The notes beneath the pieces were generated by a model. It saw only the letters and a list, made by a program, of their open reading frames with translations, was not told the DNA's origin and did not search any database. The position numbers and the translations under genes are program-made. Source: an uncultured Pseudohongiella sp. (GTDB taxonomy: Bacteria > Pseudomonadota > Gammaproteobacteria > Pseudomonadales > Pseudohongiellaceae). From it: 64,000 bases of DNA. Location: contig CAXBER010000005.1 of assembly GCA_963974875.1 (NCBI GenBank), positions 120,928-184,927 on the forward strand, read 5' to 3'. Within the stretch, counting starts at the first letter, position 1; each line of letters starts with the position of its first letter. Below, one piece after another: positions 32,146-42,308 of the stretch.

Positions 32146-33006
32146 ATGGCCAGAAGGCGACGAACCAGCCCGATTGAGGATCTGATGGATGTTGTATCAA
32201 AGTTGCCATGGTGGTTCGGTCTGACGCTGGCCATAGTGTCCTATGTTTTCTTAAGCAACTACGCTGCAAATTCAACTGCTGCGATTGAAGCTAACACGGG
32301 GAATTCAGCGGCGTTTGTAAGAGCTACTTACCTGCATACGCTTGCAAGTTTCGGCCAGTACCTGCTGCCGGGCGTGTTTCTTATAGGCGCTATCGCCTCC
32401 CTGATAAACCGAACTAAACGCAAATCATTGTTCCGCAACGCAGTGAATTCAGAGTCCGGCTCAGCGGTGCGGGAAATGAGCTGGCGGGAATTCGAAATGC
32501 TGGTAGGGGAACTCTTCCGCAGGCGCGGATATGCAGTTGCAGAAAACGATGGCAGTGGCGCCGATGGCGGGGTCGATCTGAAATTACGCAAAGGCTCCGA
32601 AACCTTTCTGGTGCAATGCAAACAATGGCGAGCTTACAAAGTGTCGGTAAATATTGTTCGCGAACTTTACGGCGTGATGGCAGCAGAAGGAGCCGCAGGC
32701 GGGTTTGTGGTGACATCGGGGGTATTTACATCTGACGCAAAAGCGTTTGCCAGTGACAAAAATGTCGAGCTGATTGATGGTTCGCAGTTGAGCGCTCTTT
32801 TGCGGGAAACGCAATTGAAAAGCACCGCGGACAGCTGGCAAGCTAAACCTGACATGGAGACCGTCAGGCATAACACGAAGACACCGCCATGCCCTCAATG
32901 CGGTGGTGTAATGGTGAGGCGCACTGCCAGACGAGGACAAAATGCGGGGCGGGAATTCTGGGGGTGTTCGAGTTATCCGGGGTGCCGTGGGATTGTGAAT
33001 GGATGA
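32146..33006 (+). CDS. mrr: Mrr-family restriction endonuclease with N-terminal TM segments and C-terminal topoisomerase-type C4 zinc ribbon
   Basis: WREFEMLVGELF, ADGGVDL, VQCKQW; CPQCG...FWGCSSYPGC. Confidence 0.88.
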   Translation: MARRRRTSPIEDLMDVVSKLPWWFGLTLAIVSYVFLSNYAANSTAAIEANTGNSAAFVRATYLHTLASFGQYLLPGVFLIGAIASLINRTKRKSLFRNAVNSESGSAVREMSWREFEMLVGELFRRRGYAVAENDGSGADGGVDLKLRKGSETFLVQCKQWRAYKVSVNIVRELYGVMAAEGAAGGFVVTSGVFTSDAKAFASDKNVELIDGSQLSALLRETQLKSTADSWQAKPDMETVRHNTKTPPCPQCGGVMVRRTARRGQNAGREFWGCSSYPGCRGIVNG

Positions 33007-36455: not shown

Positions 36456-36615
36456 TGCAACGAAGGCAAGTCAATCTAAGAGGTGGGTAACTACAGAGAG
36501 TCGCGTGAGCGACGTGCTTTAGAGCTTCGCATAAATAAGCCGTATTAACTAATATCTTGAAAAACACCGGGATAGTAAAAAGTACTTGCAATTTGCCGGG
36601 CGCCTTGTAATGTCT

Positions 36616-36639
36616 GTCCCATGTCCTAGGACGCGGGAC
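36616..36639 (+). promoter_or_regulatory. Palindromic operator upstream of the HTH-NTase-PP2C operon
   Basis: GTCCC-AT-GTCCTAGGAC-GC-GGGAC. Confidence 0.6.
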
Positions 36640-36658
36640 GGTAAATGAGGTAATATTA

Positions 36659-37303
36659 ATGAAAAGTCAAGACATCGGACTGCTTTTAAAACTGGAATCC
36701 ATGGGCAAGTCAGGCCTGAGCCCGCAGCGTAAACTGCTGTCCGCATGGCCACATGACTGGAAAGACTGGGCCAGTAGTCCAGGTGATGCGGATTGGGCGG
36801 GCGACTGGGAAGGGTTGGATCTTGCGATCTCCGGGCCTTCGATCTATAGCGCTCGCAGCTTGGAAAAACTCACAGGCATCAGTAAGTCTCAGATAAATCT
36901 GTCCTTACGCCGCTGTGTCGATGTCGGGCTTGCCAAATACGACCGTAAAACAGGTGTGCCCAAGGCGAACTCCAGGGCGCTCTACGAGTTCATCAAATAC
37001 GGCCTAAAATACGTGTTTCCCGCCAAACCCGGTGAGCTGGTGCGCGGCATCGCAACCACATTCAGCGCGCCCATCCTGAAAGACAAGTTGTTGAGTGCCG
37101 GGGACTTCAAGCTGGTTTGGCCGAATGCTGACGGCAACACCAAGGGGTTGGCGATAGAACCCCTGTTCAAGTCAGTAGGCTATGCCGTGCGTTACGATCC
37201 CACGCTGTATGCCATGCTGGCTCTGGTCGATGCCATTCGGATCGGGCAGCCTCGGGAAAAAAACCTGGCGCAGGCCATGTTGCAGGAGTTACTCCAGCCA
37301 TGA
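36659..37303 (+). CDS. Winged-HTH protein, putative type IV TA-like antitoxin/regulator
   Basis: YSARSLEKLTGISKSQINLSLRRC HTH-like segment; LYEFIKYGLKYVFP; ATGA overlap with the next gene. Confidence 0.65.
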   Translation: MKSQDIGLLLKLESMGKSGLSPQRKLLSAWPHDWKDWASSPGDADWAGDWEGLDLAISGPSIYSARSLEKLTGISKSQINLSLRRCVDVGLAKYDRKTGVPKANSRALYEFIKYGLKYVFPAKPGELVRGIATTFSAPILKDKLLSAGDFKLVWPNADGNTKGLAIEPLFKSVGYAVRYDPTLYAMLALVDAIRIGQPREKNLAQAMLQELLQP

Positions 37304-38010
37304 GTCACCACGATACTCATATCGCCATGTTAAAAGCCGTTGCCAAGGCGCTGGGCGATAAATTGCGTTCGGAAATGGCGTTTGTTGGCGGCAGCACAAC
37401 AGGCTTGCTGATTACCGATGAGTTTACACGCGAACAGGTGCGGGGAACTGATGACGTTGATTTGATTGTCCATGTAATTGGTCACCGAGGATTTAATCTG
37501 CTGCAGAAGGAGCTGGCTGGACACGGTTTTCAAGTCGCAATGCCCATTCCTGGCGAGGCTCCACCTATTTGTGCCATGACACTCGGCCAGTTGCGGGTGG
37601 ATTTCATGCCCGATGATGAAGCAGTGCTGGGTTTCAGCAACCGGTGGTATCAGGAGGCCATTGCGACTGCCTGGCCTCATGATCTGGGAGATGGCTTGCA
37701 GATCAAGCTGGTTTCACCTCCGTATTTTATTGCTACCAAGCTGGAGGCATGGAATGGGCGAGGCAATGGCGATGCCCTGGAGAGCAGGGATATCGAAGAC
37801 ATCATCAACCTAGTGGACGGTCGGCCGGAGTTGCTGGATGAGGTCGCAGAGTGCTCACCAGAACTGCGTCAGTACATTGCTGTGGAAGTCGTGAAACTGC
37901 TTGAAGACAGCAACTTCGAGTACGCCATACAGAGTCACACCGGTAACTCATCTGAGCGCGAGTCCATTATATTTTCTCGCTTCGAGAAACTTGGCGGGAT
38001 CAGCGCTTAA
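37300..38010 (+). CDS. AbiEii-like nucleotidyltransferase
   Basis: FVGG...RGTDDVD; KLEAW..RG....SRDIEDI. Confidence 0.75.
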   Translation: MSHHDTHIAMLKAVAKALGDKLRSEMAFVGGSTTGLLITDEFTREQVRGTDDVDLIVHVIGHRGFNLLQKELAGHGFQVAMPIPGEAPPICAMTLGQLRVDFMPDDEAVLGFSNRWYQEAIATAWPHDLGDGLQIKLVSPPYFIATKLEAWNGRGNGDALESRDIEDIINLVDGRPELLDEVAECSPELRQYIAVEVVKLLEDSNFEYAIQSHTGNSSERESIIFSRFEKLGGISA

Positions 38011-38747
38011 TGCAGGTTTCATGGAATAGTCGACAAGGACGCCAACGGCAAAGCAACAATGACGCTGCGACCATCGCCATCGGTGAGAACCAGCTGGTTG
38101 CCGTATTGGTAGATGCGGCGGAATCCCGCCAGTCAGGTGGTAACCAGGCCAGAGAGCTCGCACACTATTGGAGCCAGTTTCTGGCCCGGGCGGCGATGAG
38201 TCTTGCATTTCCTGTAGATGCCATTCAGCTGGATAAGCTGATGCGCCAGGAACAGGCGATCTTACGACACCGCTATCTGCACGAGATAGCCAGCTACTGT
38301 CTGGTCGTGCTCAATCCCGACTCGGGGCAGTACCAGGTTTTTCACTGTGGTGACACCCTTGCGGGTATAACGGTATCGCCCGAAGCCATTGACGGTGTGC
38401 AGTGGTTATACCCACCACATACGCTCACGCAGCAATACGCCGCCATTGGATCATCACCGGTGACGCAGTGCGTCAATGGCGAATCCGGTAGTACCAGTCC
38501 GGTATTAACCCGATGCCTGAATTCGCGACGCTTTCATTGCCCCGATACGCTCCACGGAACGCTTGATTCAGAGATCAGTATGGTGATTGCCAGTGATGGC
38601 TATTGGGATAAAAACACTGATGACGACAGCAGCGTCATTTTGATTCGTTCTGGTCAGCAGTCTGTGCAGTCCGACTCGGACTGTGACAACCTGTTCGTTT
38701 TTCCGGAAAGCACAGCGGTCACACGACAAGGAAGCCTCGCAACATGA
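38010..38747 (+). CDS. PP2C/PPM-like phosphatase
   Basis: RQSNND, VLVDAAE, HCGDT, LTRCL, ASDGYW and DDSSVI motifs; TAATG coupling. Confidence 0.7.
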   Translation: MQVSWNSRQGRQRQSNNDAATIAIGENQLVAVLVDAAESRQSGGNQARELAHYWSQFLARAAMSLAFPVDAIQLDKLMRQEQAILRHRYLHEIASYCLVVLNPDSGQYQVFHCGDTLAGITVSPEAIDGVQWLYPPHTLTQQYAAIGSSPVTQCVNGESGSTSPVLTRCLNSRRFHCPDTLHGTLDSEISMVIASDGYWDKNTDDDSSVILIRSGQQSVQSDSDCDNLFVFPESTAVTRQGSLAT

Positions 38748-38817
38748 ACACCGCTCCCACCAAAAAGCGGAACAGGCCGTTGGCGTGGTCTGAGTAGTAG
38801 TTCATCTTGTGGCAGCT

Positions 38818-41010
38818 CTAGTCCAGCACTCTCAGAAACTCACCCACCACACGGTATCGGCTGGTATCGTCTTCGCTCAGCACAAGCGTCTCAAATGACG
38901 GGTCAGAAGATCGCGGTTTCAGCAGGATTCTCTGATGTGCCCAGCTATCGCCATCCTCCGACTTGATGCTCTCGTATTCCTTGACGGTGTAGTGCGAACC
39001 ACTGTCGTCATCAATGATGTCTGAATGCTCCACCAGGACGATCTTGCCGTTGCGGCTACCGCCCTGATCGGTCCGGAACAGGCACACGGCGCCATTGGGA
39101 ATTATCCTGTTCATGGACTCCCCCTGAACCTTGCATGCGAACAGGTTTTTGTCAGCACGCTCTCCCTCAGGCAGAACAATCCAGTCGTCTATTTCGGCCC
39201 GTTGCTGCTCGCTGAAGCTGCCAGCGGCCGGGAGCAGACTATACAGCGGCACGGCATTGACGTAAGGCTCGGCTTTCACTTGCGGCAATTCGACAACATT
39301 ATCTGACGGCGTGATTTCGCGCGGTATGTGCTTAGCCAGGTACTCGCGGAAATCGGGATCGCAGGCATAAACAAAGGTGCCTCTGATACCCCGCAGCATG
39401 ATGGTTTTGTAGATGTTGAGAATATAACGCTTCAGTTGTTCCGGATCGGTGATCGACTGTTTGCCGTTGCGATCAAAATACAACTCAGGCCGGATGATTA
39501 TTTCGCCCTTGGTCTTGTCATAGCCGATCTCACGGCCAAATATGATACCGGCATAGTTCAGATCATATCCCTGTGTGGTGTGGATACAACCCACTTCAGT
39601 TGCTGATCCTGCCGCGTTGATCCAGTCCGAGCTGGTGCTGTTCCATCGCAGTTTTATGTTTTCGATTTCAATGTCGAACTTGTCGCGCTCTTTATTCGAT
39701 ACCCAGGGCCATGAATAACCGGCAATCATTCGGGATAAACCGATCTCGCTCTCTTTTTCCTGAATTTTCTGCTGGAACTCACAGAAACTGTCAAACAGTT
39801 TGAACTCGTAGGACCTGGACGTATGCTTTGCCGACGCAGGCAGGCGGGCATTGAGCAGGTCGTCAACAAACTTCACATAGGGATTGCCGCCCAGCACGCG
39901 GAACTGGGAGACCAGTTCCTGTACTTCGGTGTCTGGTGAGGCTTTCAGGGCTGAGAATACGTCTGCGGCGGCATCCGAGGGTTTTATGGTCTGATCGGTG
40001 TCATAGAAGAATACCGCCCGGCTGGATTGTTTGCGAACCCAGTCAACTTCGCTGCACTGCTTTGGATCAAACCCCAGTGCGACCGATGCTTTGTCGAAGG
40101 CGTGATAGTAGGCGCCGAGGTTTATCCGCTGACGTAATCGATGGGCCTCATCCACCAGCACGATGTCGTAATGCTGTTTCGCCAGCTCTGCTGGGCCAAT
40201 GACCATGCTGGATTTCAGGCCCGCTACGTTCGAGAAAGCTTTTTGCAAGGTTTTCCGGAAAGACGACATGGGTACAACCAGTGCCATGCGTGGTTTTTGC
40301 CCGTATTTTTCTCGCAGCCGTATCAACAGATCCTTGATTTCGGCCTCTTCGCTGGAGAACTCCCGGAAATTGAATTCATCATTTTCAGACTGCAGCAGTT
40401 TGAAGAGGAATATCGCCAGCACGGATTTACCCGTTCCCGCACCACCCTGAACCACCAGCGTGCGTGTGGTGTCGCTCACCAATGAGTGCATGATACCCAG
40501 CAGCCCCTGGCGTTGGTCTGCCGACAGCGCTTTATAGGGTGAGTATTTGAACAGGTCAGAGTTGTCCAGATGATCCAGCGAGTGCTGGGTAACGCCTTTT
40601 GCCCGAAGCTGATCCCATAAATGCTGGAAGATGTCGGCGTAGAGGATGTCCTTCTGGTAGTAGTTGTGATCCGCCAGCCCCAAGTTGCCGTTCAGCAGTT
40701 TGAACCGGCCATCGGCAGACATGTATTTGATCAGATTGGATTCAATATCCAGCGTCGCTGACTTGTTGAACTTCAGGCTGGTGATCAGATGGACCACCGA
40801 CAGATGCCGTTTGGCGTCATGTTTCAGGTGGGTAGTCATGCGGGCGACCGCATCAGCAGTCTCGCCAACGTAAGCCAAACGCTTATTGTCATCGCTCAGC
40901 ACATAGACCAGCGGCCAGTAGTTCTGCGCAAAGGAGTTGGCGCGGATATCGCTCAGCTGCTTGTCACTGAAGACAAAACGGCTGACTTCAATGACAGGAG
41001 ATGTGCTCAT
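38818..41010 (-). CDS. GIY-YIG-like nuclease / DUF2075 (Schlafen group-3-like) helicase / S24 peptidase-like fusion
   Basis: VY...YVGET; GGAGTGKS, VDEAHRL, HTTQGYDL; VQGESM...VKEY. Confidence 0.8.
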   Translation of the reverse strand: MSTSPVIEVSRFVFSDKQLSDIRANSFAQNYWPLVYVLSDDNKRLAYVGETADAVARMTTHLKHDAKRHLSVVHLITSLKFNKSATLDIESNLIKYMSADGRFKLLNGNLGLADHNYYQKDILYADIFQHLWDQLRAKGVTQHSLDHLDNSDLFKYSPYKALSADQRQGLLGIMHSLVSDTTRTLVVQGGAGTGKSVLAIFLFKLLQSENDEFNFREFSSEEAEIKDLLIRLREKYGQKPRMALVVPMSSFRKTLQKAFSNVAGLKSSMVIGPAELAKQHYDIVLVDEAHRLRQRINLGAYYHAFDKASVALGFDPKQCSEVDWVRKQSSRAVFFYDTDQTIKPSDAAADVFSALKASPDTEVQELVSQFRVLGGNPYVKFVDDLLNARLPASAKHTSRSYEFKLFDSFCEFQQKIQEKESEIGLSRMIAGYSWPWVSNKERDKFDIEIENIKLRWNSTSSDWINAAGSATEVGCIHTTQGYDLNYAGIIFGREIGYDKTKGEIIIRPELYFDRNGKQSITDPEQLKRYILNIYKTIMLRGIRGTFVYACDPDFREYLAKHIPREITPSDNVVELPQVKAEPYVNAVPLYSLLPAAGSFSEQQRAEIDDWIVLPEGERADKNLFACKVQGESMNRIIPNGAVCLFRTDQGGSRNGKIVLVEHSDIIDDDSGSHYTVKEYESIKSEDGDSWAHQRILLKPRSSDPSFETLVLSEDDTSRYRVVGEFLRVLD

Positions 41011-41327
41011 AACTCATTGTATTTCCTGGCGGTTCCCTTGGCCTTGCTGACCGGGTACTTCTCCTCGTTCTGCTTGATCTTGGCCAGCACGATGTCTTTG
41101 ACATCCAGATCACAGGCATCGGCCAGCAGAAACGCAAACGCGAAAACGTCCGCCAATTCCTCTCTAATCTTCTGTTTGTCGGCTTCTTCAGGCTGTTTCC
41201 ACAGGAAAGCTTCAAGTAGTTCGCCGGCCTCTATGCTCAGCGCCAGCGACAGATCCTTGGGGTTGTGGAATTGCTGCCAGTCCCGTTCGTCGCGAAATTT
41301 CTTGAGGGCGTCTATGATTTCATTCAT
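41007..41327 (-). CDS. MazG-like nucleotide pyrophosphohydrolase
   Basis: RDWQQFHNPKDL...EAGELLE...EELADV...KNEEKYP. Confidence 0.9.
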   Translation of the reverse strand: MNEIIDALKKFRDERDWQQFHNPKDLSLALSIEAGELLEAFLWKQPEEADKQKIREELADVFAFAFLLADACDLDVKDIVLAKIKQNEEKYPVSKAKGTARKYNEL

Positions 41328-41682: not shown

Positions 41683-41976
41683 TCACGCTGCTGGCTTGAT
41701 ATGGAGCTGTAACCCCAGCGCCTTGGCAACTTTCAGCACAGTGCTTAGCTGAGGGTTACCGTCAGCTGAAAGTGCCTTGTACAGGCTTTCGCGTCCCAGG
41801 CCTGTCTCTCGGGACAGTTCGGCCATACCTTTTGCCCGTGCAATGTCTCCCAGCGCCATTGCGATAAAGGCGGCGTCTCCGTCGCTCTCAGCAATAGCTG
41901 CTTCCAGATAGGCAGCCATTTCCTCGCGACTGCGAAGATGCTTTGCTACATCGTATTCATGAAGTTTAGTTGTCAT
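41683..41976 (-). CDS. Addiction-module antidote (HigA/HI1420-like HTH)
   Basis: YDVAKHL..EEMAAYL...ALGDIARAKGMAELSRETGLGRESLYKALS.DGNP. Confidence 0.92.
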   Translation of the reverse strand: MTTKLHEYDVAKHLRSREEMAAYLEAAIAESDGDAAFIAMALGDIARAKGMAELSRETGLGRESLYKALSADGNPQLSTVLKVAKALGLQLHIKPAA

Positions 41977-42274
41977 TACCCGACTCCAAGCCTTTAACCA
42001 ATTCATAGGCCAGTTCAATATCATCACGCTGGCTCGACTTATCTCCGCCGCAGAGCAGGATGATGAGCACATCGTCCCGCTCCGTGTAATAAACCCGGTA
42101 ACCAGGGCCCACATCGACCTTCAGTTCGGAGACTCCGTGCTTCAGATTACGGGAAGTCCCCGGGTTACCCAGCGCCAAGCGTTGGATACGGGCCTGTACC
42201 CGAGCCCTACCGCTTATATCCTTTAAGCGATCCAGCCACTTGGTGAACTGGACGGTGGTTTGGATCCTTTTCAT
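41966..42274 (-). CDS. Addiction-module killer (HigB/RelE-like, HI1419 family)
   Basis: F..WLDRLKD...RIQRL..GNPG...GVSELKVDVGPGYRVYY...LLCGGDKSSQ..DI; ATG at 42274. Confidence 0.92.
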   Translation of the reverse strand: MKRIQTTVQFTKWLDRLKDISGRARVQARIQRLALGNPGTSRNLKHGVSELKVDVGPGYRVYYTERDDVLIILLCGGDKSSQRDDIELAYELVKGLESGNDN

Positions 42275-42280
42275 GTGGCT

Positions 42281-42308
42281 ATTGTATCTCATGGGATACA
42301 ATTTGCAA
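42281..42308 (-). promoter_or_regulatory. TA promoter and operator
   Basis: Minus strand TTGCAA-16-TACAAT overlapped by ATTGTATC-N6-GATACAAT. Confidence 0.75.

Follow-up and report, generated by a model that had tools for sequence, protein, structure and literature searches.

Type VII toxin-antitoxin (TA) systems are the closest described relatives of the locus analyzed here. Although kinase motifs are absent from the partner proteins MenA1 and MenA3 of Mycobacterium tuberculosis and AbiEi of Streptococcus agalactiae, each of these proteins causes its DUF1814 toxin to phosphorylate itself on an active-site serine or threonine, which abolishes nucleotidyltransferase (NTase) activity and defines the type (PMC11375011; bioRxiv 10.64898/2026.01.19.700257). 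The acceptor residues—T39 of MenT1, S78 of MenT3 and T65 of AbiEii—lie in the loop before the DxD motif (PMC11375011; bioRxiv 10.64898/2026.01.19.700257). In vitro, MenT3-p and AbiEii-p lose their phosphate to the PP2C phosphatases PstP and SaSTP, and treatment with SaSTP makes AbiEii active again (bioRxiv 10.64898/2026.01.19.700257); the phosphatase acting on these toxins in vivo is stated to be unknown (PMC11375011; bioRxiv 10.64898/2026.01.19.700257). Here we describe a three-gene operon, A-B-C, in a 64,000-nucleotide stretch of an uncultured Pseudohongiella sp. (assembly GCA_963974875.1, contig CAXBER010000005.1, forward strand, positions 120,928 to 184,927), referred to in full as the window and used for all coordinates below. 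The operon joins an NTase of the MenT/AbiEii kind to a PP2C gene of its own, and we consider the chances evenly poised that it is a type VII AbiE/MenAT-like TA or abortive-infection module equipped with its own reactivating phosphatase.

The open reading frame (ORF) list and the sequence place three co-directional, tightly coupled plus-strand genes downstream of a 24-bp palindrome:

36586-36591, plus strand: probable -35 box TTGCAA, corresponding to a conserved TTGaca at a fixed distance in 74 loci aligned on the palindrome
36616-36639, unstranded: palindromic operator GTCCCATGTCCTAGGACGCGGGAC, 24 bp, imperfect, with two GTCC half-site repeats per arm
36659-37303, plus strand: gene A (PDC-M21A), 214 amino acids (aa), MarR-like winged helix-turn-helix (wHTH) protein, putative autorepressor and antitoxin
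37300-38010, plus strand: gene B (PDC-M21B), 236 aa, DUF1814/MenT/AbiEii-type nucleotidyltransferase, putative toxin
38010-38747, plus strand: gene C (PDC-M21C), 245 aa, PP2C/PPM-type Ser/Thr phosphatase, acting on phospho-Thr50 of B as a putative eraser

The ATG of gene B shares the sequence ATGA with the TGA of gene A, and the ATG of gene C shares TAATG with the TAA of gene B. The tight operon behind a palindrome that had been read from these couplings in the original prediction is borne out by the ORFs, their overlaps and the conservation of the operator in related loci.

The cassette itself is already on record. All three proteins match the PDC-M21 models of PADLOC-DB v2.0.0 over nearly the full model length (A, E 2.9e-75; B, E 8.2e-94; C, E 9.8e-48), in one co-directional cassette ordered A>>B>>C, and the operon is thereby a member of PDC-M21, from which it shows no difference. 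PDC stands for "phage defence candidate", a set of 145 cassettes nominated through guilt-by-embedding and called untested by their authors (Payne, Hughes, Fineran & Jackson 2024, bioRxiv 10.1101/2024.01.29.577857), so that PDC-M21 is a bioinformatic candidate. The supplement of the same paper lists the cassette FAM_01665>>FAM_00091>>FAM_01402 as PDC-M21, and the legend of its Fig. 6E names AAD(2'') and PP2C among example domains (bioRxiv 10.1101/2024.01.29.577857). The trio can therefore no longer be called new, as had been proposed, since PADLOC-DB lists it. Within the literature searched, we found neither the term 'PDC-M21' in the main text of any paper, nor a published mechanism, nor a paper proposing a dedicated-phosphatase mechanism. 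What would be new is the mechanism, that of a tripartite type VII AbiE/MenAT variant with a dedicated phosphatase, which we propose by analogy. PDC-M21 may be the first TA or abortive-infection system to encode its own 'eraser' of the auto-phosphate of a MenT/AbiEii-type toxin, a claim to which we give slightly less than an even chance.

The AlphaFold2 (AF2) model of protein B (predicted local distance difference test, pLDDT, 92.7) has a MenT-type NTase fold. Foldseek ranks 1-9 are all MenT1 and MenT3/TglT structures (prob 0.99-1.0, TM 0.45-0.61), headed by the MenT1 entries 8an5, 8an4 and 8rr5 (prob 1.0, E 5e-6); ANT(2'')-Ia follows as a later match with much weaker E-values. The B family profile aligns R-a-t-d-D-v-D on R-F-T39-R-D41-V-D43 of MenT1. 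In protein B this motif is R48-G-T50-D-D52-V-D54 (RxTxDxD); it is invariant, its Thr50 falls on T39, the phospho-acceptor of MenT1, and the AF2 model places T50 in the loop preceding the DxD strand. Seven residues, R48, T50, D52, D54, D101, K147 and D164, are invariant in 66-81 B homologues, and K147 and D164 would, judging by their spacing, be the equivalents of motifs III and IV. The earlier assignment of B to NTase toxins of the phosphorylation-silenced kind agrees with the retention of T50 in RxTxDxD. Against PF08843 (AbiEii) the window's protein scores 17.9 bits, under the gathering cut-off of 22.5; the same family is matched in 33 of 66 B family members (best E 4.8e-6) and is the sole recurrent Pfam family among them. 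B is thus a distant member or sister group of the DUF1814/AbiEii/MenT toxins and not a core member, while RefSeq labels its homologues 'AbiEii/AbiGii toxin family'. Taken with gene A, it very probably forms a TA-type pair.

Protein C alone falls just under the threshold of PP2C_2 (PF13672; 21.9 vs 24 bits). The C family profile, searched against the PDB, matches tPphA (5.8e-14), Staphylococcus aureus Stp1 (5e-12), S. agalactiae Stp1/SaSTP (2pk0; 4.3e-10) and MspP (4e-6), and carries the PPM fold signature. Eight residues of C (G10, N16, D18, D35, G114, D115, D196, D206) are invariant in 40 homologues, and the metal-binding motifs NxD, xD, GD, DG and DD are intact, covering motifs 1, 2, 8 and 11 and the GD of motif 5. 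D18, D35, D115 and D196 align on NQDA, VADG, GDSR and SDG of tPphA; D206 is, from its position, probably the Asp of motif 11. The metal-binding aspartates, whose possible degeneracy had been named as a weak point of the original prediction, are therefore conserved, and C is predicted from the profile matches and these residues to be a competent PP2C. Other conserved, non-catalytic features of the family are W132, H137 and an LTR motif. The public protein collection holds C solely as a 213-aa form (100% identity, 87% coverage), which would lose the invariant N-terminal PP2C motif (G10, N16, D18); the 245-aa start overlapping the B stop codon is supported by its conservation in 40/40 homologues.

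C shares its fold signature and metal-binding Asp residues with the housekeeping PP2Cs tPphA, Stp1/SaSTP and PstP, but it lacks a partner Hanks kinase and the glycine-rich DGxGG motif 2 (VDAAES in the window). By its own-profile score C forms a separate subfamily, encoded only behind A-B in the loci sampled: nine C-centred loci score 1e-47 or better, generic PP2Cs about 5e-22 at best. Among 400 evenly sampled genomes of the class, a true C occurs in the window's own genome only, where no second PP2C_2 can be detected. Two of the C-like matches in other genomes were examined by their neighbours and rejected as generic PP2Cs: one (L082) adjoins recO-pdxJ and the other (L085) is paired with a Hanks kinase. 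The scores of the remaining matches (1e-10 to 1e-15) are likewise those of generic PP2Cs. The PADLOC model PDLC04518 (PDC-M21C) scores such ordinary PP2Cs at 1e-17 to 1e-22 (L082 1468-2205; L085 1498-2205), and a lone PDC-M21C match is for this reason not evidence of the system.

To follow the inheritance of the cassette, we collected 80 loci with B relatives (44-69% identity) in a scan of one genome per species. They span the Gamma- and Alphaproteobacteria and include one Thermodesulfobacteriota metagenome-assembled genome (MAG) and one Melainabacteria MAG. Gene A is adjacent to B in 80/80 loci. A C homologue lies downstream of B in 43 of the 80; in an Advenella plasmid it is displaced to 3 kb downstream (L042 9845-10567). 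Of the 37 loci without C, four are cut off so close to B that no judgement is possible, and these were left out of the assessable set. Where C is absent, A-B stands alone or directly upstream of hsdM, a helicase or a NERD nuclease. A motif scan of these 80 loci detected no unrelated metallophosphoesterase in the place of C, and a profile search for B relatives at greater distance listed close ones only. The presence of C is clustered on the B tree, requiring 10 changes compared with 25 when labels are shuffled (0/500 shuffles as low). One gammaproteobacterial clade is ABC in 20 of 21 members, an alphaproteobacterial clade is mostly ABC with sporadic losses, and a clade of Pseudomonas and Moraxellaceae is all AB. 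Pairwise identities of B and C are correlated to the same degree (r = 0.92) as those of A and B (r = 0.92), and C evolves faster, with a mean pairwise identity of 32% vs 54-55% for A and B. An exhaustive HMMER search returned 167 C-family representatives; seven distant ones were looked up (E 2e-22 to 8e-5), and each of the seven directly follows a gene for a strong B homologue, with A in front on those contigs that extend far enough. C thus implies A-B, A-B has no need of C, and C is by this pattern a dedicated, co-inherited accessory. Co-occurrence of the phosphatase with the pair, on which the earlier note had hung its case, is not rare, but the trio is not obligatory. Decayed C genes are also seen: an Afipia MAG has C broken into two ORFs (L057 6680-7440), and the C of Devosia pacifica is cut down to 156 aa (L072 6665-7135). 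Together with the displaced copy, these fit an ongoing loss of C from ABC cassettes.

Gene A compares less closely with its counterparts in the known systems. Its AF2 model (pLDDT 86.6) contains a winged HTH at about residues 60-103, Foldseek returns weak wHTH matches, and MarR_2 is matched in 37 of 76 gene A family members. The C-terminal part is an alpha/beta domain of ~110 residues with no PDB match at E <= 0.001 in Foldseek. Homology to AbiEi, sought as a match to Pfam AbiEi_1-4 or a structural match to PDB 6Y8Q, was rejected: none of the 76 members matches an AbiEi Pfam family, and no AbiEi structure is among the Foldseek matches. The AbiE-type HTH antitoxin named in the original prediction is hence not demonstrable in gene A, which shares with the AbiEi and MenA3 antitoxins the general layout alone (N-terminal wHTH, C-terminal domain, palindromic operator). 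A kinase-like or NTP-binding C-terminal domain, which had also been raised, does not appear in the model; Foldseek on this good AF2 model gives no kinase or P-loop fold. Residues ~20-60 of protein A (36716-36838), between the N-terminal helix and the wHTH, form a Trp/Asp-rich linker WPHDWKDWASSPGDADWAGDWEGLD of low pLDDT (about 50-58); it is not conserved, and the consensus in relatives is shorter.

The operator is conserved in related loci. The palindrome has 13-nt arms that are 85% complementary and lies 19 nt upstream of the gene A ATG. The 64-kb window contains its generalized pattern GTCCNNNGTCCNNGGACNNNGGAC a single time, whereas 0 occurrences are expected (100 shuffles). The exact palindrome pattern is present in 52 of the 80 related loci, most of them having a single site and a few having two, and a relaxed form is found in 74. 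About 74 related loci keep the operator GTCCnnnGTCCnnGGACnnnGGAC together with the -35 box, and the distance from palindrome to gene A start is about 15-45 nt. A strict sigma-70 scan of the window called no promoter; the -35 box is instead deduced from its conservation across the aligned loci. The hexamer begins 30 nt 5' of the palindrome, and in the cross-locus alignment TTGaca is followed by an 18-nt spacer and a -10-like nnnAnT ending right at the palindrome. The operator thus occupies a fixed position between the -10 box and the gene A start in Gamma- and Alphaproteobacteria alike. As it abuts the -10 box, it would cover the transcription start, which is the classic geometry of an autorepressor, and protein A presumably binds it. 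The arrangement parallels the inverted-repeat operators of AbiEi. Eight related loci (L034, L036, L038, L045, L059, L099, L100, L104) have two GTCCnnnGTCCnnGGACnnnGGAC copies, 44-145 bp apart, upstream of gene A; these recall the paired inverted repeats of AbiEi promoters, whereas the window's operon has a single copy.

Set against MenAT1, MenAT3 and AbiE, the A-B-C operon shares the toxin fold, the RxTxDxD motif with an acceptor Thr on MenT1 T39, an upstream partner gene that overlaps the toxin gene, the absence of a kinase, and—as in AbiEi and MenA3—a wHTH partner with a palindromic operator. It differs in that A has no detectable homology to AbiEi/COG5340 or MenA1, and B matches PF08843 only marginally. 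The described systems are two-gene systems that rely, if at all, on housekeeping PstP or SaSTP; the A-B-C operon adds a PP2C gene. No kinase gene was found in the operon or adjoining it, when the flanking genes and the fold of A were examined. The earlier statement that the operon lacks a kinase is therefore upheld, as the flanking genes encode an S9 peptidase on one side and a GIY-YIG-helicase-S24 fusion on the other. Kinase-phosphatase defence modules, TerY-P among them, were reportedly described by Gao and colleagues in 2020. They have in common with our operon a PP2C in a defence-island setting. A TerY-P-like module was rejected here, there being no kinase and no TerY/vWA gene, and the partner being an NTase toxin.

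The suggestion in the original prediction that the phosphatase gates the toxin has become the best-supported reading of the operon, with T50 and the PP2C aspartates kept and C encoded only behind A-B; the biochemistry of every step, what sets it off (including the infection-triggered switch of the original prediction) and a phenotype in defence are what we infer from these features. Protein A would bind the conserved 24-bp palindrome abutting the -10 box and repress the operon. It would also bind B and induce it to phosphorylate its own active-site Thr50 with a bound nucleoside triphosphate (NTP), silencing the toxin. No kinase gene would be needed, because A would induce B to phosphorylate itself, as MenA1, MenA3 and AbiEi do with MenT1, MenT3 and AbiEii. 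Unphosphorylated B would act as an NTase, most likely adding nucleotides to tRNA 3' ends and so stopping translation. Protein C, as a Mn/Mg-dependent PP2C phosphatase, would strip the phosphate from B; that it acts on phospho-B is a step we hold to be roughly a balanced proposition. A and C would then form a push-pull pair working on a stock of silenced toxin. Should A be lost, titrated or outpaced, possibly through phage host shut-off or the loss of a mobile element, C would turn this stock into active toxin without new protein synthesis. As a private eraser of the auto-phosphate of B, C would explain the 'orphan' phosphatase that comes with no kinase.

Several observations weigh against this mechanism. 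The antitoxin and phosphorylation-inducing role of A is assigned by analogy and position, not through AbiEi/MenA homology, and a constitutively co-translated eraser would seem to carry a risk of self-intoxication. In about 43% of the assessable loci A-B has no C. No true C is encoded elsewhere in the genomes that carry A-B only, and 7 of 25 such genomes give no PP2C match of any kind; the persistence of A-B there indicates that the core module can do without the phosphatase. The acceptor Ser/Thr of these toxins is also catalytic, so the invariance of T50 is no proof of phospho-regulation, and T50 is equally invariant in A-B loci without C. Both B and C of the window are below Pfam gathering thresholds, and the structural match of B to MenT1 is moderate (TM 0.48-0.61).

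The alternative that survives best, which we nevertheless judge unlikely, keeps C as a working phosphatase tied to A-B and places its substrate outside the toxin: A, or host or phage phosphoproteins. C might in this case tune the DNA binding or antitoxin activity of A, reverse the action of a phage-encoded kinase, or serve as a second effector. PP2Cs have many substrates, and the conserved W132, H137 and LTR motif could dock any partner. The rapid evolution of C relative to A and B would be expected of a protein facing a variable, possibly phage-derived partner. Against this, no kinase is present that could phosphorylate A. The strict and exclusive placement of C behind a MenT-like NTase with a conserved acceptor Thr is most simply explained by a toxin substrate, since PP2Cs are already reported to dephosphorylate MenT3-p and AbiEii-p in vitro.

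A second alternative accepts dephosphorylation of B by C and changes its purpose: the same biochemistry would serve the addiction or stabilization of mobile elements (plasmids, islands, embedded restriction-modification (RM) loci) and not anti-phage defence. Plasmid records with a B homologue number 115, of which 46 are conjugative, and the phage collection contains no B homologue. The cassette moves among Alphaproteobacteria, Gammaproteobacteria, Thermodesulfobacteriota and a Melainabacteria MAG, and the AbiE system of S. agalactiae conferred no protection from phage under the conditions used (bioRxiv 10.64898/2026.01.19.700257). On the other side, type I RM operons repeatedly harbour the cassette, and in the window it lies in a defence hotspot. 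A-B stands directly upstream of the type I RM gene hsdM in nine related loci of Pseudomonas, Moraxellaceae and Cellvibrio (L040, L043, L048, L053, L060, L063, L064, L037, L023), and this embedding is the guilt-by-embedding signal by which PADLOC nominated PDC-M21. We consider a pure addiction role still less probable than a non-toxin substrate, and the two roles, addiction and defence, are not mutually exclusive. A third alternative, in which B is a small-molecule ANT(2'')-like nucleotidyltransferase under a MarR-type repressor and C an unrelated co-regulated enzyme, draws on the Foldseek matches of B to ANT(2'')-Ia (prob 0.91-0.97), the common control of resistance genes by MarR-family regulators and the AAD(2'') label in the legend of Payne et al., but is very improbable given the better scores of MenT1 and MenT3 (E 5e-6 vs 3e-2; TM 0.49/0.61 vs 0.36/0.44), AbiEii as the only recurrent Pfam match with RefSeq naming to the same effect, and the RxTxDxD acceptor motif, overlapping-gene TA layout and RM embedding, which fit a TA or defence module.

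The surroundings of the operon include probable defence genes. The upstream neighbour encodes a DPP-IV/S9 peptidase, and the downstream neighbour is convergent:

38818-41327, minus strand: 730-aa fusion of GIY-YIG, SLFN-group-3/DUF2075 helicase and S24 peptidase

The fusion gene overlaps a MazG-like gene and gives weak PADLOC matches to Nhi, AbiO and PDC-S14; the two are likely a further pair of defence genes. At 32146-33006 lies an Mrr_cat restriction nuclease that bears a zinc ribbon at its C-terminus, and at 41683-42301 a Gp49-like/HI1420-type addiction-module pair; flanked by these, the region would be a defence or mobile hotspot. One marine metagenome run covers 36500-38800 to 94% of sampled words, and a second run of the same study does so in part. 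Only metagenomic DNA runs contain the locus; no RNA run does.

The silencing of MenT and AbiEii toxins by auto-phosphorylation was demonstrated in 2024-2026, leaving the route of reactivation open, with housekeeping PP2Cs acting only in vitro. Following that work, a phosphatase partner for such a toxin is not very surprising. That roughly half of the operons of a toxin subfamily include a co-evolving PP2C of their own is natural genetic evidence for the missing reactivation step, and the compact three-gene system makes the question of reactivation directly testable. If the proposed mechanism is true, PDC-M21 would provide natural genetic proof that type VII NTase toxins are activated by dephosphorylation, and a mechanism would be assigned to one of the 145 PADLOC candidates.

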